Shown in pieces: positions 16,123-43,870 of a stretch of 64,000 nt of DNA. Source of the DNA: Takakia lepidozioides. Lineage: Eukaryota; Plantae; Bryophyta. Every line of letters begins with the position of its first letter. The stretch's first letter is position 1. Position numbers and translations under genes: made by a program. Under the pieces are notes generated by a model that worked only from the letters and a program-made list of their open reading frames with translations, ran no database searches and was not told the DNA's origin. The stretch is from the NCBI GenBank assembly GCA_030704615.1, contig CM060731.1, forward strand, positions 56,172,001-56,236,000, given 5' to 3'.

Positions 16123-19100
16123 ACATTTGTCCAAACGTGATCTATTTGAGATTGGTAATCGGCTGTGTGTTCTAAAAAAGTTAATCGAAATTTGTGGTTA
16201 TGCATGTAATTTTGAAGTTGTATTTTTTTAGGATTGTTTCCTAACAAGTCAATGTTGAAATCTCCAATGAGTGTTGTCGGGCAATGACGTGGTATCTTAC
16301 GATTCATGCAAGTGTAGTAGAAAGGGCTGTAAAGGCATTTGAGGAGGTTTATATACTGCAATTATGTGAATTGCTTTTCTTGTATGAATGTTAAATGTTG
16401 CTGATATGAATTCAGTGCCATTGTGTACATGAGTTTCATGGGCTTCTAGTTTCATAGTTTGGTCGTACAAAATTGTTGTGCTGTGATTGTCGTAACAACA
16501 AATGAATGAAAATTTATAGTTATTGGTGAATGCGGACCAATTTGGATCTGAGTGAATAACATTTGTTTCATTGAGACATAATATGTGAGATGTTTGAAGG
16601 TTGGGGTCAGAATTTATGTCTTCGTAATGTTGTTTTAAAGATCGAGTGTTGAAGGGTTTAGGGTTTAGGGTTTATGGTAGAATTAATTAAGAAGGAACGT
16701 CATAATTATTTTATAATGGGTATTGTTAAAATATATTTTGCATTTGTTCGGAGGTTTTCCATTTCATTTGCAACTAGTTTGTCTACATGAAAGTTTTTTG
16801 GTTCAAGTGGATTCAATAAAAATAAATGTTCTTTTTGACGTATTCTAGACTAAGCTGTATATGTTAAGCCGTGTTTTGTTACACCTTTGGGATCAAAAGC
16901 TAATCTATGAAGTGTGAGTCCTTGTGCTCGATGTATTGTTCGAGCTGCCGCAAGTTGAATGAGGAATTGTAAACGAGTGATAATGTGTTGAGAATTATGA
17001 CCTATTTGAATTTCTTTTGCTTTGGCTGTTATTGGAGTCCAACTTCGTGCTACGTCATGGAACGAATCATATAAATTGGAATGGACAAATCTAGTTTCTT
17101 GACCAATTCTTGCATCATGAAAATTGTATCCAAATTAATTCGGAATGCGTTTCGGATGTGGTGACGTGTTTGAATGTATCTTCTGCTCCATTTACTAGTT
17201 CATCGTGTGTATTATAATTACCGGCACATAATTCAATTAACATATCACATTTTATTTGAAGTTCTGTGTGTAATCCAACTGTTTTGTTTGGATCATTTGG
17301 TAATTTTATGTGATGCGGGCAAGTTTCATGTTGTATGTCAGTTGCTTTGAAAATGTATATTTGGCCTTTTATTTGTTCAAATGTGTATTGGTTATGAGCT
17401 CGAACTAGTTCATTTCTAAAAAATAAGTGTGGAAATGTTGGATCAAATGGAGGTTTTCTGTAACATAATTTATTTATTTGTCAATGTCCGCTTGTGTTTG
17501 TTCAGCTGTTCTGAATTTGTTAAGTATTTCAATGAATTTTTGATCAGTTTATCGCATCACTTGATGCAATTCGTAACATTTGATTTTATCTTGCCAAAAT
17601 TTATCTAGTCCATCTACTTTTGGCTTAAAAACCCATGAGTCTTGAATTGGTGGTGCTTGGTAAAAATCTCCGGTAATTATAACATCTAAATTGCCAAAAA
17701 AAAACTATTATGAATGTGTTTAATAGATTTTAATCTCGTCGATGAAAGTACGTATCCTGTTTCTAATTAGGGAAATTTAATCTAAAACTAATAATTGTAC
17801 TTGGTCATATTGTTTCATTAAACTGTCTCGACGTTCGTCATTTAAAGATGTTAGTCCATTTAAAGCTTTATTTAAAGGTATTGCTAAACCTGGATGGATT
17901 GTTGTTCCATTCAAATGTTGTGCTGCACGAGACAGGGCTGCTAGGCCGAAATGCTCCATCAACGGCAGCAAAACATAAGTCAAAAGCTAAACGCGGCTTT
18001 TCCGGTGTATGCCATTTAAGGGTTTTTTGTTTCAAAGGATCACTGTTTTTATTTTGTTTAGTGTACCAACGAACAAGGGCTTGTATTATAACCATTAAAG
18101 TGAAAGTTTTCCCTGTACCAGCTCCTCCTGTTAAAAATAAATGTAAAGGTTTTTTAGGGTTTGTTCGTTTTATGTACATAACATCATCAAATATTGCACG
18201 CTGCTCATCATTTAATGTACGGACCATTGCAAAAAAAACTTGACGATGGTAAAATTTCATTTTTTGATGACATTGTATTTGTTTCTAAATTTGTGATGGT
18301 AGAAGAAACGCGAGGATTGATTTGGCGTTCTCATGACACATCATATTTTTCAATTCCAAATGTATTAGTAAGGGGAATTTGAACGTGAGTGTTGTTATTT
18401 GCATCTTGAAACATATTCATCCATACATTATCATTGTTTTGTTCTGCAAGGTCGTTGACAATGTTTTGTAAATTATGCCAATTTTGTAAATTTGTGTTGT
18501 AAAATTTTGAATGTGTATTTATCACAAATTTGTTGAATTGCAGTTTGTTTCTCTGTATATGCATCATGCCAAGTTATGTGATTGTTTTTTTTAGATTGTT
18601 CTAACCCCCGAACGTTGATTTACGTTTGCGTTTGAAGTTATTAAGGTTATATTGAGCAACTGTTTCTGCAAAACAAAGCTGTTCTAAGAAGTTTGGCCGA
18701 ATCAAAACCAAATAAGCTGCTAATTGTGCATACTGTTGCGCGTTTAAAAAAGCATTTCCCATTTTTTTAATTCTTCGTGTTGCTTCAGTTTGTTCAATTT
18801 TACATTTTTGATGTATAGTTTGAAGCTCACGCGTAATTGATTTGTCTACTTTTGTTAAATATGATGTGCAATATCCAGCAGCTGCATAAGGATCAAGAAT
18901 AAATTGTACATCAGTGTTTGCTTTGCCATAATGGTGCAGCTCGTTTTCCAAATGCATTAGTTCTAATGTCGATGGGATTACGCGGAAGAATTTTTTTTGG
19001 TTTTTTTAATTTGCTTCGTAGTGCTATCAGATAAGTTTCCTCATCAATTTGTAATGAACAAAGGAATTCATCAAATGATATGTTTTGACCCATGTCCATT

Positions 19101-21390
19101 TCTTGTAATTTATTAAAAATATTTATGATTGTTTTGTGAAGGTTATTTTGTTCTAAAGTTGTTGGGGTTAGTGGAGTTAAAATTTGTGTTTTTCGCATCG
19201 GTGGTAGTGGATAATGAAATTGGCAAATAGGTTGGTGTTTCTTTCGACAAGTTCGTGTATGTCGATGCAATTGTGACTGACGCATATTTTCATTCAAGAT
19301 GGTATAATCACAACTAACGTATTTATCTATAAAAGTTTCTATTTCTGAATTTGTAGAGACACCATATGTAGGTGGTCGTGTTCACTTCCACAACTTTGGA
19401 ATTCAGTAACAAAAAAATAATCTGAAACTTGTCCAAACAATGTTTTGTCTTTTTTAATTAGTTTTCGAAAAGAAGACATGTGATGATGATAATATCTGGC
19501 ACATGTTATAGGATCAGATCTAATGAGATCGGTTACGATTTTAGGCTCTAATTTATCAACACCTTCAATTGGTATTGATTTATTAGCTAATGTATATAAT
19601 GTTGTAATTAGGGGTTTCCATTTGCTTTCAGCACTTGTGAATATAACTAAAAATGTAGGTGGACCAAGTTGGCGTATCATTGCAAAAACTTGTTTGCGTA
19701 GTTTCTGTAAATAATCTGGTGATGTGTGTATTCGTTCTAGTTCTCTATATCCTAAATCTGATCGCAAAATAACATCTAAATTAGGTTTATTTTGAACTTG
19801 TTTTGCAGTAAGTTCACTGTCCTTGTAGTTTGGCTTTTCGAATTTGTATCCATGAAGATGACAATACAAAATGTATTAAGATTTTGATAGTTTTGAAAAA
19901 TAAATTGGGTATGTGATATGCAAAGTTTCGCTTTTTTAAAGTGAGCTCATGTTTTGCAATCATTTGATATGTTTGTTTTTTTAATAATTCAGATGACTGT
20001 TGATTACCAAAAAACAGAGTTGAAAAATTATATTCTTTGCTGTGTTTGTCTCGGAATAGTCCTAAAGGAGCATAATGTTCACTTGGAGCGACTATGTGTA
20101 TGTCGTGAACATGGTCAAATCAGAATTGAGAAAGTTTTGAATTAAAGAATCTGTAGGGTTGTTATCATCCGCTTCTTCAAAATCATCATTATGGTATGGT
20201 GATTGATTTATTTTTGTGCTTTCATGTTCATGCTCGTCATTTTCATGTTCATCGTTAATATTAGCTGGTGTGAATTCATCAGCCCAGTTTTTGATAATTG
20301 TTGCATTGGCTTTTTTATATAATGGAGTTTCACAAAGATCATGTAGCGCTTTCATGACCATGTTTGGGCGAACGTAACCTGACATGTATGGTGATTTATA
20401 TTGTAATTTCCGTTTAATTATTAAAGCTATTGTTTCTTCGTCATGTGGAGTTCGTGGTAAAATACATTGCATCCGATCCACGTTAGCAAGTACATTAATT
20501 ATACTTCCACGTAATCCAAATTGCCCAAATCCATTTAGTTGATAAATTTGTGTAAATGCCATTCGTGGAGCTATTATTCTTTCTTCTAAACTATTCAAAG
20601 TACGTTACCGAAGCAATTGTTTTAATATTGGTAATGTATTGCCGCATTAACACGTTCGCTTCGTCGTCAAATTTATCATTATCAATGCCTTTTTTACATT
20701 TTTTACATAAATATTGAATTTGAACATTTTTTTGTGTCAGGAACAGGCATATAATTTTGTAATACTTTTGAATGTGCAGTAGTCATTGTTATGATTTGGT
20801 ATCTAAACCACAATCGTTGAGCGAAACATTCATGTTTAGGAGTGTCTTCAATGTCTTTCCTATGTTTTTCAATAAATGTTTCGTTAATTTTTTAATTTGA
20901 TTTTAAATTATGTTTCTTTTTTAATACGAGTATATGTCTAGAAATTTTAATTGGTCTTGAGATTCCATTAATGTATCGACTATATTTTTTGTTGTTTGAT
21001 TGGGAATACATTTGATTATGTCCATTAAAATTTCATCTAATTGTTTTGTCCAATGAAATCGTTTTGTGATTTTTTGGTTTATCGTGGAGATTGGTTTATT
21101 ATCGTGTCTATGGAATCCATGTGTTGGCAAATCATTGTTGGGTGCATTTGTTTCATTCACATTGACTATTAATGTGTTGGTATGGCTAGTTTTTTTGGAA
21201 GAAGTGTTGTTATTGTGCTTTTCACGTTTTCTTAAAATTTGTAAATGACGGTGTACTTGTTTAGAATTCAAATCCAAATTTGGATATAGATTCACAAATA
21301 ATTTACCTATGTTTTGAGCGGTTACATTTATATTGTTTGAGAAATTTCAAGAAGTTTAATGTTTAATTCATTTGTCCATTGAAATCGATT
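16123..21390 (-). mobile_element. Degenerate endonuclease-bearing Helitron (Helentron): Rep + Pif1 helicase + AP endonuclease
   Basis: Helitron Rep motifs FAMIRQLGPPTFLVIFTSAESKW, VTEFQSCGSEHDH, QLHRHTRTC and DVQFILDPYAAAGYCTSYLTK. Pif1 Walker A LTGGAGTGKT at ~18130-18105. APE motifs LIGDFNID and IDHVWTN at 16280-16125. Very AT-rich with many frameshifts. Confidence 0.88.
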
Positions 21391-21391
21391 G

Positions 21392-21836
21392 CTGTCGTGC
21401 GCATACATATCGCTGTCCAAACCACACCACACATATATGCACAATAAAGTAGTCTGCCACAATAGATAGAAAATCTTCGAACACACTGTTTACACAAAAC
21501 ATGAAAACCAAACCATCACTCTTAGAAATAGTAGTCGAGCCAGGGGCACCCCAAGCTATGGGGACTCCACCCCACAACAACCTACACTCCCATCATGAGT
21601 ACACTCAGATCTAAACGCATGCAGGAGCTCGGTCGCGCAGGCTCAACTCGAGAAAGATGAGCCGCGCGACTGCCGCTCTCGTGAAGATAAGACGGACCAG
21701 GTGTCAAACTAAACTTGACACCTGATTTAACACTTGACCTAAATCCAAGTGTTAAATACAAATAACTAGTTTTATTCTAGCTGTTTTCACACTGTGCTTA
21801 TTTAACTTGACAGCTGTCGTGCGCATACATATCGCT
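21392..21836 (+). repeat. Second, diverged copy of the 5' module found at 15628-16122; continues at 33081-33480
   Basis: Shares GTCGTGCGCATACATATCGCT at both ends, GCACCCCA.GC.ATGGG, GAGAAAGATGAGCC, CGTGAAGATAA and two hairpins with the reverse complement of 15628-16122. Confidence 0.75.
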
Positions 21837-22200
21837 ACAAGGGTGTTGAGTAGAAAAACATTTGTTGTGAATCCACTTTGGATAATGTGAGTGTGCACCT
21901 GCTTTCCAGCTTCCAGACCTTCCATCTTCATGCACTTAAGCAAGAGACAGACATACGTATCTGAATTTGCTGAAATGCCTCCTTGGTTTGAAGTCTGTAG
22001 AGCCTCTGTCAGGCTGCCTGCCGCACAAAGTATCTTCACATGCCCAGAAGTGCCAGAAGAGGCATTGTGGACTCCCTCTCTTGATCCTCTTTCAGAAGTT
22101 GTGGTCATGGTTGAGGTGCCTGATTCTATCAACTGTGTCGCTGCAGCTGCTGCCTTTAGTTGACCATCTACCCATGTAGGTTTATTGTCCACCCACACAC
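21837..22200 (-). pseudogene. PPR gene 5' fragment
   Basis: ORF 21752-22198 encodes a PPR N-terminal region and the repeat YVCLLLKCMKMEGLEAGKQVHTHIIQSGFTTNVFLLNTLV, cut off at 21837. Confidence 0.8.
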
Positions 22201-22599
22201 TATCCCTGCTCCTTAGTTATCCATGCATCTGCACAAATCATACATACATCCTTGCCTTGCTGCTATCACCCAACTCAACTTATCACTCTAGTTCCTATCC
22301 TCAATTTCATCTGCTATTCTCTGTAATCCAACAGGCATTCACCTTTTGCCTCCATTGTCCCACCATTGACTGGGGTCAGAAAAGTATTCATTCCACAGCC
22401 TCTCCTCGTCTCTGTTACCTGTTTCTGGATACTTCCCTGTTGTCACATTGGCAATATCATGTCAAAGTCACTCCAAACTATCAACGGTTCACTCAACCAG
22501 CTAACTTGCAAAATTCAACATGAAAATTTAGGGCCGATTGTGATAACAGGGAAAAACAAGGTGAAATGTTTTGAAATGTTTTGAAATGATGATGATGGC

Positions 22600-22755
22600 T
22601 CAACGGCTTCCAGAACTTCCATCTTGATGCACTTAAGCAAGAGATAGACATATGTATCTGAATCTGCTGAAATGCCTCTTGGTTTAAAGTCTGTAGAGGC
22701 TCTGTCAGACTGCCTGCCGCACAAAGCATCTTCACATGCCCAGAAGTGCCATTCT
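22600..22755 (-). pseudogene. Third short copy of the same PPR 5' fragment (frameshifted)
   Basis: GTSGHVKMLCAAGSLTE..GISADSDTYVYLLLKCIKMEVLEA, near-identical to 21905-22055. Confidence 0.75.
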
Positions 22756-22791
22756 CTACGATCCTACAAAAATGCCACGGGCTTCCATTAC

Positions 22792-22900
22792 CTGACCCTT
22801 CACTTTCAGATTAATGTGACCTCCCCCCCTCCAAAGGCTTCTTCTCCTCCTCGTTGTGAATTTCTTCTGCATTGTTGGTGCTATCCTCCACACCAGCCAT
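22792..22900 (-). pseudogene. SUMO: Isolated first exon of a SUMO gene
   Basis: ATG at 22900 gives MAGVEDSTNNAEEIHNEEEKKPLEGG, then a +1 shift in a G7 run gives GHINLKVKGQ followed by the donor site CAG|GTAATG. This is the typical plant SUMO exon 1. No downstream SUMO exons were found. Confidence 0.75.
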
Positions 22901-23640: not shown

Positions 23641-23826
23641 GAAGGGATAGCTGACAGTTTCAGGGCGCGCAACACTGATGGCACTCAAAGTGTGCTCTTG
23701 CTAGCATTTGGAACGCTCACTATGCCCACATCTGCAACCAGCTTCAGCTCCCAGTCCACCCACATTTCTGCACCCTCCTCGCCATTTTCGGCCATCTGAG
23801 GAGTCTTGTTGCGACCAGTCTTGAAG
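23640..23826 (-). pseudogene. Fragment of an organellar Obg GTPase gene (Obg-fold/G1 junction)
   Basis: [60 protein letters not shown] matches the plant plastid Obg sequence [27 protein letters not shown]. Confidence 0.8.
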
Positions 23827-23940
23827 GTAGTCTGTGAACTTGCAATCTGTGAACTTGAGCCAGGACCTCGTGTGTTCAAGGTCTCCTAGTAGCTGGGCCT
23901 TGCGTTGCTTGTTAGCCTCCCATGGTTGTATCCACTCCCA

Positions 23941-24084
23941 CTATCCAATGCATTGTGGACATAACCAATCCCCATCTGGAACCATCTCAAGAGGTGGAGT
24001 CAAGCACCCCATATGCCAACCTCTAGAGCATCGATCACACACCAGCATGGTGGCTGCCCCTTTAGCAGACCCACACAATATGCA
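23941..24084 (-). CDS. PHD finger at the C-terminus of the Gypsy integrase
   Basis: CILC..MLVCDRC..WHMGCLTPPLEMVPDGDWLCPQC is a C4HC3 PHD. It is in frame with the integrase tail across a single TAG at 24286-24288. Confidence 0.9.
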   Translation of the reverse strand, partial: CILCGSAKGAATMLVCDRCSRGWHMGCLTPPLEMVPDGDWLCPQCIG

Positions 24085-24285
24085 CCTCAAACCTGCAGAT
24101 ACCACTGCCAGGTTTGGGTCAATCCTGCCATCGACATTCGGAAGGTGACATGGCGCACAATTACGCACATGGTCCTTCCAAGTTATGCCATCCTGACCCT
24201 CCAAGACCAAGACGCCTGAGGGCAAGACCTCTCGAACCCTCAAAATAACACGTCCTGCAGTCACATCCAGGGTCGTAGGAGCAGT

Positions 24286-26940
24286 CTACTGCAGATAGAC
24301 ATAGTCACCAGGGTTGAATCTCCGAACCCCAGGACGATAGCCCCCACCACGTATGGTAGCATACCTCAACGTATCACGGTGTTGTGCAATGGCAAGGTTC
24401 TCGAAAGCCATGGGCATGACTCTCTTGAACAACTCTGCACGCTGCTCACATGCACGTGCCCATACGTCCGGATCGTCAAGGTTAAGAACTGTAGCAGCTT
24501 CTCTGCGAATGGATGTAGGCAAATCCGGCTCTCGGCCAAAGAGAAGAAATATGGTGAGAAGGAGGCAAGTGATGCTTGCTTGCTGAACCTGTAGCCCATG
24601 GCTAACCAGGGTAACTGAAGGTCCCAATCTCCTAGGTGTCCCTTCTGCAAGCCATACTTGCGCAAACCCCTCTTTACTGTCTGAACAACTCTCTCTGCCA
24701 AGCCATCGGCCTCAGGATGATCCCGAGAAGTGGTGCGGTGGTCTATCAAGGCCTTGTCACACAAAGCCTGAAACTCCCCCAAGAACTCTCTCCCTTGGTC
24801 CGTGAGTACCTCAGCTGGAGCACCGAATCGGCTAAGCACACAATCCAAGAATGCATACGCAGCTCCCTCACTAGCCTTATCAGGCAATGGAACCAATTCA
24901 ATCCACTTGGAGAAGTGCTCCACCATCACCAACACGTACTTGTTGTGGCGCATGGTCAGTGGCAACGGCCCTGCGAAGTCAAGACTCCACCTGTAGCCCA
25001 ATCCCATGATCGGAAGAGGGTGCAATTGTGGAGTAGGGGCGTTGAATGAAGCACGCACCCTGTCACACACCATGCACCTAGCCACAAATTGTTGCACCTC
25101 TGTGTGCATACCACGCCACCAATACTGCCCCTGCAGTAGACTATGAGTGCGTCGCACCCCAAAATGCCCCAACTCCTCATGGGCATGCCGCACTAACCGT
25201 GCCCGCTGTGTTGGGTGAGGCACAATCCTCACTCGACCATCCTCCCACACTCGGAGCAGGTGTGTCCCCTCCCACCTGAACCTCTTGGCTCGTTGTAGGA
25301 TCTGATCCCTCTCCTTGGCAGTCATAGTGGCTGCCGTGTCTCCACTGCGGAGGTAGTCCAACACAACTGAATCCTCATGTATATCTTTGGCGCCACCCTG
25401 CTCATTGCTGGCCTCAGGGTCCTCAGACACTTGATCTACAGTCATCCCTGTTGTAGGTCCAACCTGGCCTTCCGCTGCCAAGATACACAGAAATGCAGAT
25501 GCATGCCATCCGGGCACCATCTCCTCGTCCGTCTCACCATGCCACCGAGCTCCAGTGTCATCCTGCTGGCTCGTGCATGGATTGCGACTCAACCCATCTG
25601 CATTTCGATTGACCAAACCCGGTCGATGCACCACCTGAAAGTCATACTCTTGAAGGATGAGTGCCCACCGTGCAAGCTTCCCCGTAAGCTTGTCTGACTC
25701 CATCAACCACTTGAGTGGTTGGTGATCCGTGACAAGGGTGAAGAGATTGCCGTATAGATAGCACCTGAAGTGTGCCACGGCCCACACTGCAGCTAAGCAT
25801 TCTCCCTCATATGAGCTATACTTAGACTCTGCAGCATTGTTCGAGCGGCTAGCATAAGCCACTACGAACTCTCTTCCCTCATCATCCACCTGTGTGAGCA
25901 CCGCTCCAAGCCCCAGCATGCTCCAATCTGTATGCAGCTGAAAAGGACGCCCCCTGATAGGTCGTCTCAAGATGGGCGCCGAGGTCAACCTCGCCTTGAG
26001 CTCTTGAAAAGCTTGTTCTTGCTCATCTTCCCACTGCCACTCCTGGTCCACCTTGGTCAGCTTGGTTAGAGCCTTTGCAATGGCACTAAATCCCTTAACA
26101 AACCGTCTGTAATAGTTTGCTAACCCCATGAAAGCTCGAACTCGGCTCACATCCGTGGGGCGTGGAACCTGTGCAATGGACTCTACCTTAGTCTGCTGTA
26201 CCCCCAATCCTCCAGGATATATCATGTGACCCAGATACTCAATCTGGTTGTGGAAAAACTTGCACTTGCCCGGATGTAACTTCAATCCGTGCGTCCTCAA
26301 GCGCTCAAATACCCCCTGAAGGTGTCTCTCATGCTCCTCCACCGTAGCACTAAAGATGATGATGTCATCTATGTAGCACCGAGCAAACTCCACCCCTGCT
26401 AGAATCCTGTCCATGACTCTTTGAAACTCAGCGGGAGCGTTTTTAAGCCCAAATGGTAAGAACCGCCACTGGTATAGGCAATCCTTCCCGTGCTCATTGA
26501 TCCCCCAGAATGCCGTCTTTTGCTTATCCGCCTCCTTGATCGGCAACTGGTGATATCCGGATCGTAAATCCAACGTGCTAAAGACCTTGGAATGCCCAAT
26601 GGCATCAAAGATCTCCTCTGGTGTTGGCATGGCATACCTATCGGACTTGGTCTGACGATTTACAGGCCGGTAATCACCGCACATACGTCTCTCCGTCCAA
26701 TTGCCATAGACATCCTTCTTAGCTGGCATCACTGTGGCTGAAGCATACTCTCCACCAGAGAGCTCCACCAAACCTGCCTCCCAGAGATCTTGAGTCCTCA
26801 TCTGAATCAAAGACCTCTCCATGTCACTGTATCTATAGGGTCTCCGAAAGATTGGCGTGTCAGTGGCCAACTCAATACGGATCTCTTGACCCTTCAGTGC
26901 TCCCAAGTCCTTCAAACTGAAGGCAAAGCAATTCCTGTAA
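24286..26940 (-). CDS. Gypsy reverse transcriptase, RNase H and integrase
   Basis: RMCGDYRPVN, LDLRSGYHQ, LPFGLKNAP and YIDD (RT); LHTDWS..YEGECLA..VTDHQPL (RNase H); HEELGH..CMVC, SLDF, LTDQG and DGLAER (integrase). One frameshift near 24545. Confidence 0.96.
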
Positions 26941-27384
26941 GCCCTCAGGAACCGCCGTATACGTCGTCTCTCTCCTCCGGTGACAATGGGTCCAATGTCA
27001 GGCTCCCAATTGTCCTCCGTAACTGCAACCTTAAGTCCAGTGGGCTTAGAGGTAGAGGACGCGTCCCGTGGTTGCTATGCTGCAACCTCTTGAGCAGTAC
27101 CCCTTCCTGCTCAGTCAATGACAAGGCCTCATCCTGCCCCATCATCTCATCATTGAGAACCTCCTCATCCCGAGAAGAATCCCCAACCTCATCCATCACA
27201 GCTGCCTTCGCTGCCAACTCCCTCTGAACCTCGAGCACCTCCCACGTGTGCCATGGATGTCTACACCTCGTGGTCCTCACCGGCTCGCCCCCACTCGCTG
27301 CCTGTACCGTCTCGGTAGGCAGAGAGACCGTCAAGGGAAGTGCACTCCGCACTCTACGTTGCTCAGCCATAGCCAAGCTGACAA

Positions 27385-28330
27385 TCCAGGTCAAGCAATT
27401 GAGATCCATTGCTTGCCCCAACACCTGACGACGTGATGCCTCAGAAAGAGAAGGCACCGCCGTGGTCCCAGTGGAAAACCCCATAGCCCGCTCTCGCTCG
27501 TCGGCATTAGGCTCCACTAACTGCTGCAACTGAGCATCCCACAAGAGGCCAGGTCCACCATCCCGAAAAGCATGGGATCCTGGGAAGCTGAGCAGTGTAG
27601 GTAATGCTGCTCGTGGTTGACCCACCCTGTTGACCACTGCCAAAGGCGAACGGTCATCGTGTCTCACACGTTGAGACTGCCTTCCTGTGTCCAAAATGCC
27701 ATCCACGGTGAGGTGTGCTGGCCGCTGCACCCCATCAAATGCACGCTTGAGCAGTGCGGGTGGCATCAAGTTAGTCCACCATAGTCGTGGACGATGAGCC
27801 CGTGACCCCACTGCAGCTGCATCCAGCAACACTGCTGACCCAAGCCACGACCGGACTTGATGCACACTGGCCATCACCCTGGCCCGAGAATCACCCATCA
27901 GTGGCACATTCTCCAAGATGTATGCTGGAGATACAGCTTGATGAAGCTGCAAGCGCGCAAAATCCGCACCATCTCCCAAAACAGACCCGTCCTCGAGTCT
28001 CGCAATCCATTGCCATGCCCGGCTGATGAATGCCCTTGGCAGGGCCAACCTGCCACTACCAGATCAATGGAGCCAACCTGCTCCAAATCTTGCGCCCCCA
28101 ACAACGGAAATGTCTGCTGGCAAGGCTTGTTGGTATCCACGAACTGCAGACACAGGCAACAAGTCAGGGTACTGCTGTACCAACTGAGCCACATGGCGCA
28201 GTGAGACGCGTCGTGCAGTCTCATCCCTCTCCACATACAGGTAACGCCTTACCCGCACACCTGCCTGTAGCACAGCAGCCAATCCGGTGCTGATCCCGCC
28301 AAACAAGTCCAGAAGGCAAATGCCTTCATC
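27385..28330 (-). CDS. DNMT3-like C5 cytosine DNA methyltransferase domain embedded in Gypsy pol (two frameshifts)
   Basis: Motif I LLDLFGGISTG (~28316), motif II YVERD, motif IV DLVVAGWPCQ (PCQ at 28044-28036), TGLFWE, motif VI YILENV (ENV at 27913-27905), motif VIII SRAHRPRLWWTNL, motif IX ERERAMGF and motif X RRQVLGQAM. Order and wording parallel DNMT3. Confidence 0.92.
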
Positions 28331-29378
28331 CGGCCGCTGCCACACAAGAGGTGTGGTGTCCAATGGACAACTGAGGTGGCCCTGGTGCAATCACCGCACT
28401 CTCCTCCTCTCCTGACGGTACAAAAGCTTCTACCCAAGCTTGTTGCACCCGTCCATCAGCAGCTTGCTGCAAATCCTTGCTCGTACCCCACAACGGAGTG
28501 TGAGCAACCATGGCAGGCAACTCCGCCGTACCATGCATGTCATCCTGCTCTGCTGGAGGTGGCACATCCTCTGCATGGGCATTGCCTTCCAGCAACTCTC
28601 CAGGCCAACTAACTGCAGCTGTGAAGGCGGCTAGTGTTGGCATCTTGCCCCGCTGGGCAGCTGCAATACCCCCAATGAATGTCACAGGGAGCTGTGCACG
28701 GCGACCATCCCCTGACTGCCATCCAGGCCTGTAGGATGCTGACTCCTCCCAGAAATCCAGGGTGAAGCCCATGGGGTATAACACTGCCCCACCAACGAGG
28801 ACATCGTAAGAGACCGCGTCTGTCACAATGGCCTTGGCTCGCATCACTGAGCCATCTACAGGATGATCCGGCTGCAGTCTAATAGCCAACTGATGCCGTG
28901 TCATGCCGCGAGCCTGCTCTGATCCTCCCAGAGATGTCTGTATCTGGAAAGGACAAGGCTCCATATCCGCCTCCATGAGGCCCAAACCTGCAATAGCAGC
29001 TCTGCCCAACATCAGTGGCTGAGCTCCTGAGTCCAACAAGACCCGCAGTGGCCGGTACTTCTTGCCTGCCGGTCCACTCAAAGTGAAAATGCCTCCCTGG
29101 TTGTCTAACAAGACAACTCCAGGTGTCACCATGGCGCGCTCAAAGGCTGGCCTAGCTGGCAGCTCCGTCAACCTGGCAGCTGCAGCTTGCCATGGCGCAG
29201 CCGTGGCAGTCTTGACCCTCAAATCCGAGGATCCCTCTGCCACTACACCTTCCACTAACTCCGCAGAAGATGAAGTGACCTCCCCACTCTCACAGAGTGT
29301 TGCTGCTAGTCTGAACACTGCAGCTGGTCTCACCCCCGGCGTCGCAATCATGTTGCCGAGAACAGTGGGGCTTGACAC
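28326..29378 (-). CDS. Gypsy aspartic protease region
   Basis: RVLLDSGAQPLML catalytic motif and a downstream YDVLVGG motif. Confidence 0.85.
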   Translation of the reverse strand: MSSPTVLGNMIATPGVRPAAVFRLAATLCESGEVTSSSAELVEGVVAEGSSDLRVKTATAAPWQAAAARLTELPARPAFERAMVTPGVVLLDNQGGIFTLSGPAGKKYRPLRVLLDSGAQPLMLGRAAIAGLGLMEADMEPCPFQIQTSLGGSEQARGMTRHQLAIRLQPDHPVDGSVMRAKAIVTDAVSYDVLVGGAVLYPMGFTLDFWEESASYRPGWQSGDGRRAQLPVTFIGGIAAAQRGKMPTLAAFTAAVSWPGELLEGNAHAEDVPPPAEQDDMHGTAELPAMVAHTPLWGTSKDLQQAADGRVQQAWVEAFVPSGEEESAVIAPGPPQLSIGHHTSCVAAAG

Positions 29379-29414: not shown

Positions 29415-31270
29415 CTAGCCTTGGCAGCAGGTGTCATGCTGCACGTGTAGCTCTCCCCAATGGCATAGTAACCTCCGCCTCGGTAACAGTCGGGCGAGAA
29501 CTAGGTGCCATGGATGGCGTCGACACAGTCTCCGCCAATGTGAATGACTGAGGAAGCCTGCCTGACGGCTTGCCTCCCCACGCTGTGGATCCAATTCCAC
29601 CTCTGCACCTCGTGGCTCAGGAACTCGTGCTGCTCCTCGAGTCACGGCTGCAGCAGACTCCACCTGCTCTAGTGGTAGTGCTGCTCCGCACATGAATCCC
29701 ATGCCTCCCATATCTCCTCCCTCAGGAGCAGGAGGTGGACCATCCCGCCTGGGAGCCGGTACCGCCTGAGCTATAGCCATGGCAGCGAGCCTCTGCTCTA
29801 GCTGCTGAAGCCGGTTGGCCATGCCTTGATCAACACCCTGACCTCCGCGTCCTTGGCCATGTTGAGCTTGCCCTTGGCCTGCACCTCGTGCCCGACCACC
29901 TCGTCCTCTCTGGGCTGGTCCACCTCGCCCCCGGCCACCATTGTTCCCTTGGAACTGGCCTGGGCGCAACTCAGGATGCAAGTCATAACACTGGGCATCT
30001 CCATGCCCATACTTGCCACAATGCCCACACTGCAACTGTGCAGGCTGTGCTTGTGCCGGCCTTCTGCCACTCTCTGGGCAATCTCTCTTGACATGGGGTC
30101 CTCCACATGTCCAACATATCACCCCTGGTTGCTGTTGGCCTGCAAAAGATGCCACGGGCCTCTGCACCTGAGGTCCCCTGTAAGCTCCATGGAACTTGGG
30201 CTGGGCAACCTTGCCCCCCTGACCACGCTGTTGGGCAGTCCCTTGTGCTTGTGGGCTGACAGCTGTGCCCCGTACAGGCATGTCCTTGCCAAATCCAATT
30301 GTAACAACTCGCTCCTCCACCATGTTGAGCTCAATCCGCTCAGCCAGCAGAAACACATCTGCTAATGTGGGTTGGGCTGCTTGTAACAGGGTTGCATCTC
30401 GCACCCTTCTCTTGAGCTCCTTGTCCAGAATTCCATACCAAAACTGGATTGCCTGAGCTTCAGTAACCCCTTGGGTCACACTTATCAAGCGCCTCATACG
30501 AGTGTACGCCTCTCGCAGGCTCTCACTGGGTTTGCGCTGGAAGTCTTGCAAACTTCGCAGCTTCTCTGTCCGTACACCTTGGTAGTTCCTCCGCAACTCC
30601 TGGAAGAACTCCACCACCGGGTTGAATCTAGGCACATGTGTTGTAGTGTGGCAGGAGGAGTAGTAGCACCTTTTGAACTGGTACCACCTGCAGAAGTACC
30701 AGCACTACCTGCTCCACTACTAGTGCTGGCAGTGGGAGCTATTGGTACTGATGCAGCTACTGGTCGCGTCGTGCCTCGAGTAATGGAGACGTAGTCAGGT
30801 GACCAATACATCCTCCACTCCTCAATCTCTGCTTCATGTCCTCGCCTGAACTCGTGGTAATCGTCCATAGGCGGGCCTTCCAAATGCTGGAACAGTCCCT
30901 TCCACGCCATGAATGGGGTGAATAGCTGTGGATTGCGCATCTGCTGCAAATCACACCAGCTGTCGAACTCCTGGATAAAGTCATCCAACTCGATTGTGCC
31001 CACAGCTCCAGAGTACCTACGAGGCCCCTTGGTAGCTCCATACATCTCCTCCATGTCGTCCCACAACAATGGCGAATGAAAGTGCACACCTGTTGATGAA
31101 GCCTCCGAGTCTGTGTCTGACTCTACAGTAATTGAGGGTGGCGGTGAAGGTGGTCTGAACCGAATACCTCGTCTTGTGAACCCACTCTCACTGTTACTGC
31201 CTGTAGCCGTACTCCCCTCAAAACCCTTGGGTAACTCCGTAATGACACTCACAATGTGCACCTCCTCCAC
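29415..31270 (-). CDS. Gypsy gag with two zinc knuckles (frameshift near 30630)
   Basis: Retrotrans-gag-like FQRKPSESLREAYTRMRRL, knuckles CWTCGGPHVKRDC and CGHCGKYGHGDAQC, and an RG-rich tail. Confidence 0.85.
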
Positions 31271-31790
31271 GTGACACTATAAGGCTCTAGTACTAATCTA
31301 ATAGTGACACGGGTGGGCACCTGTTGCAGTTTTAAGGGTCATATCCCAATGGCTCAGGGCACCTGCACCTGCATCCACCGCAAGAACTCCTATGGTTGGC
31401 TGGTCATCAACCCAGCCTCACCATAGAAGAAACACTGGTGGTCTTGCTGGTCATCACTCCAGCCTCACCACCGACAGCATACTCTAGGATTGACCGGTGA
31501 TCAAATCCGGCCTAATCCCTATGAAAGTAAGCGCCCACACAAAACCAACATGGCGCACAGTCAAGCATGCAGGTGTTGGGGGGGATCCAAACACAAGAAA
31601 TCAAAACATCAACACCCCCACACCAAAATCCAGCTGCAATGCTGATCCTGCAGAATATCCCAGCCCAAAACCCCGGACTGACTGGCCTCCACCAAGAGAG
31701 GCTTTGGCAACTACAAGTACAAGGTAATGAAAATAGTACAGAGATGGAGAGGAAGAATAGAAGCCCGACCAAGCAAGATCTAATCCTGAT

Positions 31791-32540
31791 CTATGCTATC
31801 AACTGCCAGACTTCTCTCAAAGTGCCTCGCTCTGCATGATGGTAAGGTGTAGGAGGTATATCTATGTCCAGAAACCTGCCACTAACCTTGTCCCAAGCTA
31901 CAGTAGCTCGCTCTAACCAACCCTCCTCCTCTTTCTGCCAGGTAGAGACAAAGCAATACTCCCCTATCTCCCGCTCATTGAACACTAAAGAAAACAAAGG
32001 TAGGGTCTGATAGTCTCTCAACTCGAAAGCTTTGAGATGGTTGCGGGTGTCCTCATTGCGAATGACTGCATCTCCTTCACGCACAACAAACATGTCATTG
32101 CTGATGAACCCCCGCTCGTGGTTGCCCTGTGTAGAGCGTATCCGGCTGCAACCATGTCTGATTGCACAAACTTGTGTAGCTCTTGCTCCTCTGCTCCAGT
32201 ACACCACGGCCTTGTGGCTGAACACCTTGGTCCCCGGGGCTGTCTTTGGCTGTGTTCCAAGCCTAGCTTTCACCCACTTTGGTATTTCACCTACAGCTGC
32301 AGAACTGCTGGCTCCAACAGAGTTCTGACTGTCCAAGGCGATATTGAGGCCCTCAATGTCAACTACAGCAGTCTGTTGTCTACTGCTAATGCCTGACTCC
32401 CAGTATGCAATCAACTCGTCCAACTGTTCTCCACTCAAATCAGTCTGAGTTCCTTGGGAAACATAAATCCTGTCCCCTTGTGTGCACAGGCTAAGAGAAG
32501 AGACCTGCCCTTCAATTACGTCCTCATTTCCCCCAGCCAT
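31791..32540 (-). CDS. Uncharacterised 249-aa ORF upstream of gag
   Basis: ATG-initiated, uninterrupted, on the same strand as gag-pol and inside the presumed element. No family recognised. Confidence 0.5.
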   Translation of the reverse strand: MAGGNEDVIEGQVSSLSLCTQGDRIYVSQGTQTDLSGEQLDELIAYWESGISSRQQTAVVDIEGLNIALDSQNSVGASSSAAVGEIPKWVKARLGTQPKTAPGTKVFSHKAVVYWSRGARATQVCAIRHGCSRIRSTQGNHERGFISNDMFVVREGDAVIRNEDTRNHLKAFELRDYQTLPLFSLVFNEREIGEYCFVSTWQKEEEGWLERATVAWDKVSGRFLDIDIPPTPYHHAERGTLREVWQLIA

Positions 32541-32791
32541 GCAAGGAGTACATCCACAGATTTGTCTCTCATATAGACCAGCACAGGTTCTAGAGACAGG
32601 ATTGTGGATCTTTTATGGCACACTCACACTCTAAAAATTCCATAGATTTTCAGCAGAGTCCCAAAAACAGAAACCAGGTCTAGGTAGGTAGATTTCCCCT
32701 TTCTGCAGCTATCCTCCCAAAAACTGAGTCAAACGGAGTCCATCTGACAAAGTTATGACCAGTTAGGCTCTAAATCATTTAAATTAGATCA

Positions 32792-32839
<48 letters not shown>

Positions 32840-32845
32840 CGAAAA

Positions 32846-32865
32846 CGTTCTCACCATTAAAAACT
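32846..32865 (-). other. Possible primer-binding site and 5' LTR end of the Gypsy element
   Basis: The - strand reads ..GGGAACA gtttttaa TGGTGAGAACG (CA end followed by a TGG-initiated PBS-like sequence). The cognate tRNA was not identified. Confidence 0.3.
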
Positions 32866-33003
32866 GTTCCCACGTCTTTTGGGATTCACTGCAGGTTCCC
32901 TAAGAATTCCTTGGACTCCTTCTTCAAACCTTCATAATAGCTTTTTCCAAGGTTAAAGCAGGTGAAGCCAATGTCAACACAGAGGCCACGGCTTTGGGAA
33001 GAC

Positions 33004-33080
33004 GGAATGAATGGCGATGTTCTGCTGGAACTCCAGGGAAGCAAGAGCTGCTGCTGCCGGGAGGTCAGGGTGGACGAGGC
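33004..33080 (+). pseudogene. Upstream piece of the same Obg GTPase sequence
   Basis: GDVLLEL-PGKQELLLPGGQGGRG. In Obg this immediately precedes (NAS)FKTGRNK, which is found at 23826 on the opposite strand. Confidence 0.7.
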
Positions 33081-33480
33081 ATCGCTGTCCAAACCACACC
33101 ACACATATATGCACAATAAAGTAGTCTGCCACAATCGCCCCCCTAACTGGTGGATAGGTCCCTCTACCTCCAGATAGCTACAAGATGTAATAGCCACAGC
33201 TGTACTAAGTCCTCTATCACTGTCCCTATTGTACTCAAACTCTATAGACCAAGAGGCCGGGTACAAGAGTAGCCCCATCGTTAGTCGCCATTATATACCA
33301 ATCCGACATTACCTGACTACAGACACAAGCAGCACACACAAGAGGTCATTTTGGGTTGATGGTCGGCCAAATCCTCCATGGGTCATGACACAAGGTCAAG
33401 GACAATGTGGTGAGGGCACATTCTTCGACCTATTTCAGCCTGTTTTGCCCTCTCATCAGACTCAGCCCTGAGATGCATAT
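33081..33480 (+). repeat. Continuation of the repeat module broken at 21836
   Basis: 33081-33135 is identical to 21409-21463. 33130-33210 resembles the reverse complement of 15385-15475. Confidence 0.7.
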
Positions 33481-33589
33481 TGAATTCTGTAAGTTAGCTC
33501 GTTGGGTACCATGATTTGGTATGATGTTTACAAGGTTTTTGGGAGAGTAAGCTTGGTCTTAGCAGGCCGTGCCCTCCAAGGTCACGTTC

Positions 33590-34894
33590 ATTCTACTCTC
33601 AAGGCATGTGCCAGCAAAGGTGCCTTGGAAAAAGGAAAACAGGTCCAAGCTGACATTTTGAAAGCTGGAATTGCACCAATGTCATTTTAGAGACTGCCCT
33701 TGCCGCCATGCGGGCCAAGTGTGGGAGCATGAAGGATGCCCGTCGAGTTTTCGACAATATGGCTGGACGAGATGTGGTTTCATTGTGCGATGATTGCTGC
33801 AGGATATGCTCGTTTGCAAAGCGTGTCCAAGCCTGGCAGCCCTGGAAAAGGGCGAAGAGGTGCATGGCGACATCGTCAGAGCTGGAATTGTACCAGATGT
33901 GATCCTGAACTCTGCCCTGGTGGACATGTATGCCAAATGTGGGTGCATGGAGGATGCAAAGGGAGTGCGACAATATGGCTGAATGAGCTGTGGTGTCGTG
34001 GAATGCAATGATCGCAGGATATGCACAACATGGTTGTCATAGGAAGGTCCTGCAACTATTTGAAGGAATGCAAAAGAGCGGCTTGAAGCAGTATGTGTTC
34101 TCTCTGCATGCAACCACACTGGCCTTTTGAATGAAGGTAGACGCTACTTCAATTCCCTGATTCAAGATCATGGTGTCACTCCGACAATATAGCACTTTGG
34201 CTGCATGGTGGACCTTCTTGGACGTGCGGGACAACTGAATAAGGCAGTGGACCTGATTAATAAAATGCCAATCAATCCAGATGTTGTGGTGTGGAAGGCC
34301 TTGTTTAGTGCCTGCAGAATCCATGACAATGTAGAGATGGCTCAACGTGCGGCAACATCTATCCTCAAGTGGAATGAACAGGATGCCGCGACTTATGTTG
34401 CTATCAAACATCTATGCTGCAGCTGGCAGGTGGGTTGATACTGTAAAGGTGAAAAGAATGATGAAGGTCAGAGGGGTTGAAAAGGAGCCAGGTCGCTGCT
34501 GCATTGAGGTTTGCAACAGGGTGCACACCTTTGTTGTAGATGACAAGTTACATCCCAGAATTAAGGAAATCCATGCTGAGCTGAGAAGATTGTCTGGGAA
34601 GATGAAGGAGGCGGGGTATGTGCCTGACAGGCGCTTTGTATTGCATGATGTGGGGAGGAGGAAAATGAATTTTCTCTTTGCCACCACAGTCAGAAGCTGG
34701 CCATTGGTTTTGGGCTGATCAGCATGACCCCTAGGACGCCTCTCCATCTCATCAAGAATCTTCGAGTGTGTGGTGACTGCCACACCTCCACCAAATTCAT
34801 CTCAAAGATTGTTGGCCGAGCAATTGTTGTACGGGACGCTAACCGCTTTCACCACTTTGAAGATGTGATTTGTTCTTGTGGTGATTACTGGTGA
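33590..34894 (+). pseudogene. PLS-E-DYW PPR RNA-editing factor pseudogene
   Basis: Frameshifted PPR repeats, [40 protein letters not shown] and CSCGDYW* (TGA 34892-34894). Confidence 0.92.
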
Positions 34895-38828: not shown

Positions 38829-39155
38829 TAAAGTGGATCAAGTAAGGAAAGCTTACTGTCAAAAAGGTCTGACTTCCAACTTTCTAAGAGCTCACTATAT
38901 ACTGAAGCTCTGAATAGCTCTGCAAGGAAGTCCAAGTTCTCCCTTGGATGGTCAAGCCTGCAGAGAGTGGGGCAGCAACTAAGTGTGGTGGTCATCATAG
39001 ATCGCTAAGCTTAACTGGGCTCACCACTACGCAAGGTGGCTTCTATATGTAACTGCTAAATTATGTGCTAAATATTAAACCTAGTAGTAGCATCTAAGAG
39101 TAGCATCTAAGAGTTAATCCTACTTTGATCATGTTGTGGATCTCCATCTCCAACA
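38829..39155 (-). repeat. Copia 3' LTR (327 bp)
   Basis: Direct repeat of 43547-43870 with about nine substitutions and two small indels, counted by eye. Confidence 0.95.
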
Positions 39156-42100
39156 CCTCCCCTCGAACTTTAGAAGCTTGACAGCCCGCTGCAACTTCAA
39201 AGCGAGTTTAATGTCAACATGGTGTTCTCCAAAATAGATCTGCTCAACGTTCAGAGAGTGGAGTGTTTAGCCATCGGAGAAACATTATGCTGCGATTTGT
39301 GGACAAGTTTCCTCCTTTCAGACCCAGACAGCCACCAAGAAACAGACTCCCTTAGAAATCAATTGTTCGCACCAAGCTAAGTTCATCTCGAAGCTTTTCG
39401 AAGAGGGTCCGACCCAATGGCTTAGTAAGAATGTCCGCCAGTTGATCTCCGGATGGAACGTGATTGATTTTCAACTCTCCTGACTTTTTCCCTAATAAAA
39501 TGGTGACGGATTTCTATGTGCTTCATTCTGTCGTGAAAGACTGGATTTTCTGATAGCTTGATTGCACTTTGATTGTCACACATCATCTGCGTGGGTTCTT
39601 TCTCATCAAGGAATTGTAGTTGTGAAAGAAGCCTTCTTAACCACACCGCCTCCTTAGCACCACTAGTCATAGCCATGTATTCAGCTTCTGTCGAAGACAG
39701 AGCCGTGCATGGCTGTTTGTTTCCTGCTTCCCCAAGAGATGGGACTTGAACCTAGTCTGAACAGATATCATGTGGTGGACTTCCGATCGTTGAGGTCGCC
39801 GGCCCAGTCTGCATCTGAGTATCCAGTGAGGATGCTTGCTTCCTCTCGCTGGTAACAAACCCCCAAATCCATAGTACCTTTGATATATCTAAATAGATGT
39901 TTGATGGCGTCCATGTGTGGGGTTTGAGGCTGGTTGGAGAATCTGCTCACCATGTTCACGGCGAAAGAGATGTCCGGCCGTGTTTGAGTAAGAAAGTTTA
40001 AATTCCCAACCATTCGTTGATAGAGTTGGGTGTCCACCGCTGGTGCTCCCATGTCGATCTTGAGTTTGAGCCCTGGGAGCATGGGCGTGATTGCTGTGTT
40101 GCATTGCCCATATCCAAATTCTTCTAGCATTTGGGCCGCGTAGCCCCTTTGAGTCACAATGATCCCTTCAGGTTGAAAGAAATACTCAAGCCCAAGAGAG
40201 TCCTTGATTAGACCCATGTCTGTCATCTCAAAGCGTTTCTTGATCTCTGATCGTATCCATTGCAGCTTGTTGTCATGGTTACCAGTAAGATAAACATCAT
40301 CTACATACAGCATGAGTAGGACAATTCCGTCTCCTTCTCTGAAGTAATATAAGTTTCCATCCGAGTTTGTGCGCTTCAATACTTGTTCTTGAAGGTAATT
40401 GTCTATTTTGGTGTACTAGGCATGCGGTGCCTAACGAAGACCATACAAGGCCTTACGCAACTTGGAAACCTTGCTCTCTTTCCCCTTAGCCTCGAAGCCT
40501 TCAGGTTGCTGGATAAACACTTCCTCTGTCAATTCACCGTTTAAGAAGGCAGTTTTGACATCTAAGTGAAATATAGGCCAACCATTTTGACCTGCTAGTG
40601 CTGTAACAGCTTGCAAGGTGTTGTATTTGGCCATCGGCGCGTAGGTCTCGTCAAAATCCTCCCCTGCTCGTTGTTGGAAACCACGAGCCACCAAACACGC
40701 CTTCAATTTGGCAGTGGTTCCATCTGCGTGTGTTTTGTCTTTATAGATCCATTTGGTGGTAATGGGTTGTCTACTGGGGGCAGATCTTCAAGAGTCCATG
40801 TGAATTGAGGCCATTTCCTCTTCCATGGCGTTGACCCATCCTGGGTGTCGAGATGCTTCGGCATAGGTGGTGGGTTCTAGGAGAGCTTTAGACAAACCCA
40901 CCACGAAATCATGGAATCGTCTTGGAGGGTGAATGGCTCGGCCAGTGCGCGTATATACACCTTCTTGTAGTGGTGAAATTGCCTCTAGTTGCCCGTGCAT
41001 ACTGGAGGTCGAGGCAGAACTATCCTCTAAGTCTACACTTGACTGACCTGTAGATGATGACATAGAAGGCAAGGATTCATGAAGAGTATCTGAGTTTGGG
41101 TCATGCAATCCTTCGAACAAGTTGTCATCAGTCCTTCAGGTGGTTCTTGGACTGGTGAAAGCTCCAAAAAATCAGGAGACTTTTGTTGTGGGAGCTCCCG
41201 CCGTGGTCTGTCCGGCTAGCTATCGGCTGGCCACGAGAAATTAATGTTGTGATCTTCAAGTGGTTGTCTATCAGCAGCAGCTAGGATATAGTGCATGTGA
41301 TCCTCATCAAAAACAACATCCTTAGAGATGATTATCTTGCTCATCCCTGGACAAAAGCATCTATAGCCCTTGGTGCTAGTGTCATAACCCAAAAGTACAC
41401 ACCTCATGGATTTTGGTGACCATTTGGTCTGGTGAGAGTTGATGTGGACAAAGCATACACAGCCGAACACTCGCAAGTGTTTGACATTAGGCGGGGCTCC
41501 AAATAATTTTTGGTGTGGTGTGATGCCATTGTTCGCCCTTGTAGGAGACATATTGACAAGGTAATTTGTTGTGCTGACAGTCTCTGCCCAAAGATGTGCT
41601 GGAAGATGGGCCCCGAAGGCCAAGCTCCTGGCTCGCTCTATCAGAGTTCGGTTCTTCCTCTCTGCGATCCCATTTTGATGCGGGGTGTTAGATTGGGTAA
41701 ACTGTTGTGTTATGCCATGATCTGCACAAAAATTTGAGAATGCAGTGAGCAGTACTCCCCACCTTTGTCTGATCACAACACTTTGATAGTACGTCCAAAC
41801 TGTTTCTCAACTCTGGACTTAAATTGCTTGAACAAGATGAAGGTGTCACTTTTCTTCCGAAGGAAGAAGACCCAACAGTACCGACTATAATCGTCTGTAA
41901 ATGTAAGAACATACAAAGCTCTAGAGAGAGAGGCTGTGGACAGTGGTCCACAGATATCAGTGTAGATCATATCAAGAGGCGATGAACCACAGGCGATGAA
42001 CTCCTGTGAAGACTCTTCTTTGGATCTTTCTCCCGACTTTGCTTTCCAAGCGCACAAGCATGACAGACATCATGGCTCATGGATAGATTTTGAGGAAGAT

Positions 42101-43546: not shown

Positions 43547-43870
43547 TAAAGTGGATCAAGTAAGGAAAGCTTACTGTCAAAAAGGTCTGACTTCCAACTT
43601 TCTAAGAGCTCACTATATACTGAAGCTCTGAACAGCTCTGCAAGGAAGTCCAAGTTCTCCCTTGGATGGTCAAGCCTGCAGAGAGTGGGGCAGCAACTAA
43701 GTGGTGGTCATCATAGATCGCTAAGCTTAACTGGGCTCACCACTACGCAGGGTGGCTTCTCCGTGTAACTGCTAACTTACGTGCTAAATATTAAACCTAG
43801 TAGTAGCATCTAAGAGTAGCATCTAAGAGTTAATCCTACTTGACCATGCTGTGGATCTCCATCTCCAACA
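43547..43870 (-). repeat. Copia 5' LTR (324 bp)
   Basis: The - strand begins TGTTGGAG and ends CCACTTTA, directly abutting the PBS. Confidence 0.95.

Follow-up and report, generated by a model that had tools for sequence, protein, structure and literature searches.

Retrotransposons that carry a DNMT3-type cytosine methyltransferase (DNMT) are best known from the work of de Mendoza et al. (2018; PMC5890265). KnitGypsy-Dnmt3 of Klebsormidium nitens has Gypsy domains, DIRS-like repeats and a Ka/Ks below 0.2, and the capture of its methyltransferase was placed in the K. nitens lineage; in yeast its DNMT produced no methylation, an outcome that the authors regard as inconclusive. The Symbiodinium retrotransposon DNMT3s methylate CG de novo in yeast, and methylation of cDNA was proposed by the same authors for their own DIRS elements (PMC5890265). 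Why a transposon keeps an enzyme that normally silences it has been an open question since 2018, and the hosts known at that time, a dinoflagellate and an alga, offer little genetics. Sarre et al. (2025; PMC12344493), citing the 2018 paper, and a recent preprint (10.64898/2026.05.21.726589) speak of 'streptophytes', and in their available portions land plants are not named; the tips of the tree figures could include them. The literature covered holds no land-plant report of the family described here and no mention of its predicted leaky stop, with Repbase/Dfam, Iyer et al. 2011, the Marchantia genome papers and the preprint supplements lying outside that scope. The family is likewise unmentioned in the accessible portions of 10.1101/2021.11.30.470311, 10.1101/363937, PMC6453930, 10.1101/2022.06.16.496473, PMC11244446, PMC10952607, PMC6317226, PMC2754532, PMC4132726, PMC9985172 and PMC9516144.

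The element lies within a 64-kb stretch of DNA, referred to here as the window, and is encoded on the minus strand. Its parts, beginning at the 5′ end and closing with two displaced pieces of the 3′ end, are:

31277–32796, minus strand: 5′ region with an 822-nt open frame at 31791–32612; read depth is repeat-like up to 32780.
29415–31276, minus strand: gag with two zinc-knuckle-like Cys/His motifs, split into two frames (Retrotrans_gag E 0.002, below the cut-off).
28701–29150, minus strand: aspartic protease (LLDSGAQ), from the ORF translation.
28112–28339, minus strand: DNMT3-type domain, motifs I–III (motif I LLDLFGG), from translation; up to 85% identity to the closest relatives.
27970–28104, minus strand: DNMT3-type domain, catalytic motif IV (GWPCQ), PF00145 E 1.3e-10; its frame differs from both neighbours.
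27386–27955, minus strand: DNMT3-type domain, motifs VI (ILENV), VIII (RAHRPR), IX (ERERAMGF) and X (LGQAMDLN), from translation; 73–78% identity to the best Marchantia and Calypogeia proteins.
27069–27077, minus strand: in-frame TAG followed by CAA CCA (CAR-YYA), a predicted leaky stop between gag-protease-DNMT and RT-RNase H-integrase-PHD; conserved in related loci.
25602–26999, minus strand: reverse transcriptase (RT) and RNase H (RVT_1 E 2e-32; RT_RNaseH E 6e-36).
24290–25298, minus strand: integrase with H2C2 zinc finger and rve core; frame break near 24550.
23944–24099, minus strand: PHD finger ending the integrase (PF00628 E 1.5e-11).
33081–33289, minus strand: displaced 3′ piece with the end of the 3′ UTR, a polypurine tract (PPT; ~33136–33146) and the first part of repeat B; the region before B in loci L051 and L025 matches.
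21393–21839, minus strand: displaced 3′ terminus with the end of B, a palindromic B/A junction (CGACA-GC-TGTCA at 21819), repeat A, and a second B ending in CA.

This is a Ty3/Gypsy element, with the domain order gag-protease-RT-RNase H-integrase and an integrase that ends in a PHD finger, and the window copy is decayed. The closest solved RT is that of Ty3, and no tyrosine recombinase (the mark of DIRS/YR elements) was matched, an integrase with rve core and H2C2 finger being present instead. The N-terminal piece of gag is 56–65% identical to Marchantia-type ORF1. The protease has no Pfam match in the window copy, and the homologous stretch of a related locus (L040) matches Asp_protease_2 at E 2e-4, below the cut-off. 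The 273-codon frame at 31791–32612 (minus strand) has no Pfam match, no relative among the loci and proteins, and no usable ESM Atlas match, and a second A copy looked for upstream of gag is absent from the window.

The 3′ end of the window copy is dispersed over three places (23839, 33081–33289 and 21393–21839), which may reflect rearrangement or misassembly. A 1205-nt contig from run X6 passes from 33080–33289 directly into 23839–24805, such that these two pieces are joined in another copy, and loose read ends connect the 21393–21839 piece to 33080. A hexamer present at both 21831 and 33081 was considered as the target duplication of an 11-kb insertion and rejected, as reads place it in an internal repeat of B. 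The segments 23641–23831 and 32797–33080 are the two parts of a single repeat with a poly(A) tail and lie on opposite strands, and together with the PPR pieces at 21752–22810 (minus strand) and 33577–34894 (plus strand) they imply several inversions or misassembly.

An earlier note on this DNA had described C5-methyltransferase motifs in canonical order, intronless and situated between protease and RT, and this is borne out by three-frame translation and by collinearity with unbroken relatives. The motifs at 27386–28339 (minus strand) follow the canonical order across three frames, with frame changes flanking motif IV on both sides and further breaks elsewhere in the element copy, and an intron-sized gap is absent. 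Because reads from other copies differ in length near some of the break points, the breaks are either peculiar to this copy or errors of assembly. The base composition also matches that of the element, as the note had it, with a GC content of 0.567 in the DNMT, 0.568 in the protease, 0.55 in gag and 0.50 in RT. A PF00145 search, which the note proposed, detects the motif IV piece, and the motif I–III and motif VI–X pieces, each alone, match no Pfam family. A profile made from 20 relatives has DNMT3A as its top match (E 2e-18), with DRM2 at 1e-5 and M.HhaI at 5e-6, and a structural model of P0001, a 75%-identical relative (pLDDT 70, pTM 0.77), matches the fold of DNMT3A at E 1e-16; profile and fold thus both favour DNMT3A, in agreement with the DNMT3-like assignment made earlier, and by profile, fold and linear motif order this is a DNMT3-type domain. 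The motif VI–X piece is 43% identical to K. nitens GAQ93235.1. DUF3444, the C-terminal mark of host plant DNMT3, has no Pfam match in four full ORF1 proteins.

The domain is family-wide, since the same domain order recurs across metagenome loci and in named liverwort and moss genomes. A motif VI–X search returned 96 relatives among 3867 candidate proteins, of which the best named are from Calypogeia fissa (78%), Marchantia polymorpha (73–76%) and Sphagnum (51–58% over most of the piece). More distant family members occur in Klebsormidium, Closterium, Scenedesmus and Cymbomonas. The Marchantia cluster (P0007) has 18 members, and five among the 15 listed are gene models of 1278–1281 aa that read gag-protease-DNMT and reach a stop 86 aa past the DNMT domain. 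Going by gene names, four of the 15 listed members are on the V sex chromosome. A metagenome scan yielded at least 302 relatives among 600 stretches, with 80 loci retained; the main metagenome group is referred to as Sphagnum-like, its ORF1 end residues being identical to those of a Sphagnum jensenii protein. Searching the full library with a profile gave 441 clusters at E ≤1e-30, and the named hosts among 20 cluster representatives are K. nitens, Closterium (4), Calypogeia, Scenedesmus and Cymbomonas. Among viral contigs only six matches turned up, all of them weak, with E values no better than 4e-7 and lengths up to ~100 residues.

Three layouts are present among these relatives: gag-protease-DNMT followed by a stop, gag-protease-DNMT-RT in one chain, and RT-RNase H-DNMT-integrase-PHD (Scenedesmus). 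Among stored proteins, 43 are gag-protease-DNMT without RT and 16 have protease-DNMT-RT in one chain, three of the latter being Marchantia gene models. In chlorophyte elements (P0335, P0345 and many of P0275–P0414) the DNMT clade follows RNase H and precedes integrase, as in Scenedesmus, and the Cymbomonas protein has the DNMT and then integrase; because the same clade occupies this position in chlorophytes, the DNMT appears to have changed place within the polyprotein. Two further proteins are of note. P0187 combines a DNMT (E 1e-48) with the Pfam marks GAG-pre-integrase and retroviral SH3, which suggests a Copia-type host element, and P0034, filed as a methyltransferase from a bacterial MAG, is 93% identical to the L040 DNMT and is likely retroelement contamination.

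Trees of DNMT and RT recover the same groups (45 elements, the RT tree being a quick one and three near-identical rows omitted). In a 47-row DNMT tree, which has a midpoint root and no rows for DNMT3 or DRM of the host, the window falls together with Marchantia, Calypogeia and a Sphagnum-like locus (94/89), and Klebsormidium and Closterium make up a group of their own (99/93). Family members filled the results of the protein searches, among which no named host DNMT3 or DRM appeared, and this leaves the trees without a host outgroup. By sequence comparison the family appears to be a land-plant branch of the KnitGypsy-Dnmt3 kind, which is its closest known family, and is probably not the product of an independent capture. 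The earlier note knew of no land-plant family, and we too found no report of one.

Comparison of the window DNMT piece with 11 Sphagnum-like copies gives pN 0.18 and pS 0.74, values that RT shares (0.18/0.74), and the corresponding dN/dS values of ~0.07 for DNMT and ~0.08 for RT are rough, with synonymous sites near saturation. Between L040 and L041 dN/dS is 0.13 for DNMT and 0.17 for RT, and in a distant lineage it is 0.19 and 0.25. Within the Sphagnum-like group it is ~0.5 for both domains, as expected from post-insertion decay (23 sequences were used for the DNMT piece). The domain therefore does not show the neutral dN/dS that would have counted against the earlier note, and the substitution pattern indicates that DNMT is under purifying selection equal to that on RT.

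Related loci have the layout A-body-PPT-B-A-B, starting with TGTCA and ending with GACA, and both the A-A and the B-B repeats are present in L026, L046, L048, L057, L060 and L066. Among six distinct insertions with both ends, four have exact 4-bp target duplications, one has a mismatched duplication, and one has an end that was not called. The TG...CA ends and the 4-bp duplications point to integrase-made insertions. The terminal repeats are split in this way and do not form two equal flanking LTRs, and LTR-pair finders may miss the family for this reason. The internal B/A joint is a palindrome (GACA-GC-TGTC) that resembles joined ends and is conserved in the window as well as between lineages, and our guess is that replication passes through a circular or concatenated intermediate that integrase opens. 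At 15460–16130 (plus strand) the window has another PPT-B-A-B end, which shares the palindromic junction (15645). Upstream of it there is no match to gag, DNMT, RT or integrase of the element, and it is possibly a non-autonomous partner.

In the window, the RT frame opens directly after TAG-CAA-CCA (27077–27069). The DNMT thus ends the gag-protease ORF and a stop precedes RT; the earlier note is supported in that the DNMT is an integral polyprotein domain and not a nested gene, but its wording 'inside pol' is not supported for this branch. The junction can be compared in 56 of the 80 loci, those in which the end of the DNMT and the start of RT are present. At 54% identity or above (n = 38) a stop is present at the junction codon in 35 loci, and in 33 of the 38 the stop is followed by CAR-YY (26 TAG, 7 TAA), a count that includes near-duplicates and one-family loci and corresponds to about three independent lineages. 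The remaining three loci have deletions or frame breaks at this codon. L040 and L041 read TAG-CAG-TTA within flanking protein that is not alignable with that of other loci, and L040 has open ORFs of 1369 and 1047 aa in the same frame, one stop apart. The full UAG-CAR-YYA site is present in the window, L040 and L041; L025 has the hexamer after a TAA, and the Sphagnum-like group mostly has CAA-CCC, which shares five of the six letters of CAR-YYA, the sixth being C. As background, CARYYA comes after 4 of the window's 1513 TAG triplets.

CAR-YYA after UAG is the readthrough signal of tobacco mosaic virus (TMV), and is ~10% efficient (PMC2754532; PMC4132726). By analogy, the RT-RNase H-integrase-PHD portion is probably made by readthrough in a minority of translations, perhaps a tenth of them, and the DNMT would therefore be in excess over RT and integrase, with the enzyme at capsid levels. 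Such a dosage is not needed family-wide, because in the distant lineage (40–44% identity, n = 18) 14 loci have no stop in the 34 codons scanned; the other four have scattered stops.

The reading that we prefer, with a probability of about 0.55, is that the window holds a broken copy of a land-plant Gypsy element whose DNMT3 ends the Gag-protease protein before a likely readthrough stop, is packed in capsid-level amounts, and likely acts as a methyltransferase on newly made DNA of the element itself. ORF1 would bring the DNMT3 into the particle at the level of the capsid, the protease would free the domain, and the enzyme would methylate cytosines, most likely in CG, on double-stranded cDNA before or at integration. 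The new copy would then arrive pre-marked like old host chromatin, and host maintenance methylation would take over. We put the chain of protease release, cDNA methylation and hand-over to host maintenance at roughly even odds. A leaky stop predicts capsid-level dosage, which favours a role inside the particle. CpG observed/expected is 0.50 in the element and 0.53 in the whole window, and depletion of CpG and CHG does not separate the element from its surroundings, such that no extra self-methylation is visible in its composition.

The PHD finger has its best solved matches in the PHD fingers of CHD4, PHF12 and KDM5B, and also resembles those of BAZ2 and AIRE. The CHD4, KDM5, BAZ2 and AIRE fingers are readers of unmodified H3K4, and the element finger lacks the cage tryptophan that we take to characterise readers of H3K4me3, which would favour non-promoter chromatin. 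The finger could thus bind unmodified H3K4 and direct insertion away from active promoters, a role that we would give an even chance.

The same finger features in an alternative that we consider unlikely, in which the enzyme is active on chromatin rather than on particle cDNA, acting at the target site, on other transposons or on host DNA, either with the integration complex or from ORF1 alone. PHD finger and DNMT3 would then be a two-protein version of the animal DNMT3 reader-writer pair, and the likeness of the finger to those of CHD4, KDM5, BAZ2 and AIRE agrees with this, as do the many Marchantia copies with an open ORF1 and the excess of enzyme expected from an ORF1 that is translatable without RT. 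The fusion to Gag, however, points to packaging, no targeting module is known within the DNMT domain itself, and the K. nitens methylome is land-plant-like despite the presence of such elements (PMC5890265).

It is similarly improbable that the junction codon is a true stop, with CAR-YY there by chance and RT-RNase H-integrase-PHD made from a spliced or separately started RNA or by re-initiation. The Sphagnum-like group has an in-frame ATG three codons past the stop that could serve such a start, and two-ORF layouts with gag-protease first are known in other plant LTR lineages (PMC6317226), but this ATG is absent in the window, L040 and L041, and lineages with flanking protein too different to align share the stop, the frame and CAR-YY.

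Quite doubtful is a domain kept for nucleic-acid binding, or for methylation of the RNA genome or an RNA-DNA intermediate, instead of the marking of double-stranded cDNA; such a domain may serve A-B-A-B replication. The K. nitens domain was negative in the yeast DNA assay (PMC5890265), 99 of 333 relatives, mainly in distant lineages, have Glu in place of the Pro that precedes the catalytic Cys, and the split repeats with their internal joined-ends palindrome suggest a non-standard intermediate. Against this, the tallied catalytic and SAM-binding residues are near-invariant: among stored proteins matching the DNMT profile (397 of 432, redundant ones counted) 329 of 334 retain the catalytic Cys, 338 of 348 the Glu of motif VI, and 333 of 349 and 335 of 347 the two arginines of motif VIII, compared with a median column conservation of 0.5. 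The fold and profile also fit a DNA-acting DNMT3, and a DNMT2-type tRNA enzyme is the last of 49 matches to the 20-relative profile.

Parts of the element are present in 14 sequencing runs from seven studies, and the best-matching run may be the window's own source. In three of four runs examined the DNMT bins have a summed depth similar to that of gag and RT; in run X1 it is ~20,600, compared with 13,000–43,000 along the coding body and 0–220 in two adjoining non-element bins, and in run X6 the DNMT bins are low (1.3–1.6 versus 5–51). The domain clearly belongs to a repeated family, depth not being equivalent to copy number. The end of the DNMT is connected to RT by a 2173-nt X6 contig, which comes from another study and shows four differences and one gap. 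The element is flanked in the window by PLS-E and DYW PPR genes of the embryophyte type that the earlier note reported, which support a land-plant host. The PLS-E ORF is at 54084–56189 (701 aa), and broken PPR-E/DYW copies are at 33577–34894 and 63032–63862. Other residents of the window are a decayed Helitron at ~18900–20600 (minus strand; Helitron_like_N, DUF6570), a Copia-like element at 38829–43870 with LTRs 96% identical, and a LINE-like RT at 58145–60839 accompanied by a partial duplicate in inverted orientation (85% alike over 765 nt); a bacterial-code scan found no tRNA or tmRNA genes in the 64 kb. An artefact, be it a nested gene inserted once, contamination from an alga or a contig of chimeric origin, might be read into the scrambled locus, with its 3′ end in three places, its many small frame breaks and no contig spanning the whole stretch, but is highly improbable here and for the family already refuted by the shared domain order, the bridging contig, the DNMT depth in three of the four runs, the closest named relatives being land plants, and the PLS-E and DYW PPR genes that flank the element. 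None of the three outcomes that the earlier note set against its own reading is thus seen.

We hold it as nearly certain that the following are jointly correct: the identity and order of the domain, its presence in liverworts and Sphagnum, RT-like purifying selection, the retained catalytic residues, the stop and its 3′ context, the A-body-PPT-B-A-B termini with TG...CA ends and 4-bp duplications, and homology to the Klebsormidium element. A broader scenario is possible and is offered tentatively: Gypsy-DNMT3 would be an ancient green-plant lineage founded by one capture before the chlorophyte/streptophyte split, with the domain later relocated, and in its land-plant branch the leaky stop would load the capsid, the element's own cDNA would be methylated, and the open Marchantia copies would form an overlooked pool of de novo methyltransferases able to touch the host methylome when de-repressed. 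Marchantia polymorpha is tractable, with methylation mutants and methylomes, so the question of why the enzyme is kept becomes directly testable there; the gene models concerned are labelled 'hypothetical protein', and surveys that tally DNA methyltransferases in bryophytes may have to include the family copies or leave them out.

Among known systems, KnitGypsy-Dnmt3 shares with this family the Gypsy domain set, an intronless DNMT3 after the protease, A-coding-B-A-B repeats, purifying selection and the catalytic residues (PMC5890265), although in the window the B-A-B end is displaced and a 5′ A is lacking, the KnitGypsy-type split repeats being found in related loci. K. nitens GAQ93235.1 has a zinc knuckle, protease and DNMT and is collinear with Marchantia Mp4g09160 (29% identity over 569 aa, E 1e-54). 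The host is an alga in the one case and a land plant in the other, and whereas the KnitGypsy-Dnmt3 DNMT is in the RT ORF according to its authors' review reply, a conserved stop lies between the two here, the K. nitens protein compared being a partial one. A KnitGypsy-like single ORF of DNMT-RT-RNase H is thus not found in the window and 35 of the 38 close loci, but is found in 14 of the 18 loci of the distant lineage.

SymbioDIRS-Dnmt3 also has a retrotransposon DNMT3, for which CG methylation has been shown, and A-B-A-B repeats, but uses a DIRS tyrosine recombinase in place of the DDE integrase and 4-bp target duplications seen here. EpiLTRs are likewise retrotransposons with a cytosine methyltransferase, but their DNMTs are sister to DNMT4 and are accompanied by DAM and chromo domains (10.64898/2026.05.21.726589). 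The host plant DNMT3 proteins (PpDNMT3a/b; Yaari et al. 2019, PMC6453930) and DRM have a DNMT3-type catalytic domain, and the linear motif order here is that of DNMT3, whereas the element domain is without DUF3444, introns or motif rearrangement and is embedded in a retroelement. The stop resembles the TMV type I readthrough site (PMC2754532, PMC4132726) in having UAG with CAA-CCA (window) or CAG-TTA (L040 and L041), and differs in that it separates gag-protease-DNMT from RT, that its readthrough is predicted, and that the Sphagnum-like hexamer ends in C. Set beside these systems, what is new here is a land-plant branch of Gypsy-DNMT3, a probable recoding signal that alters the predicted enzyme dosage, and model-plant copies in which ORF1 is open.
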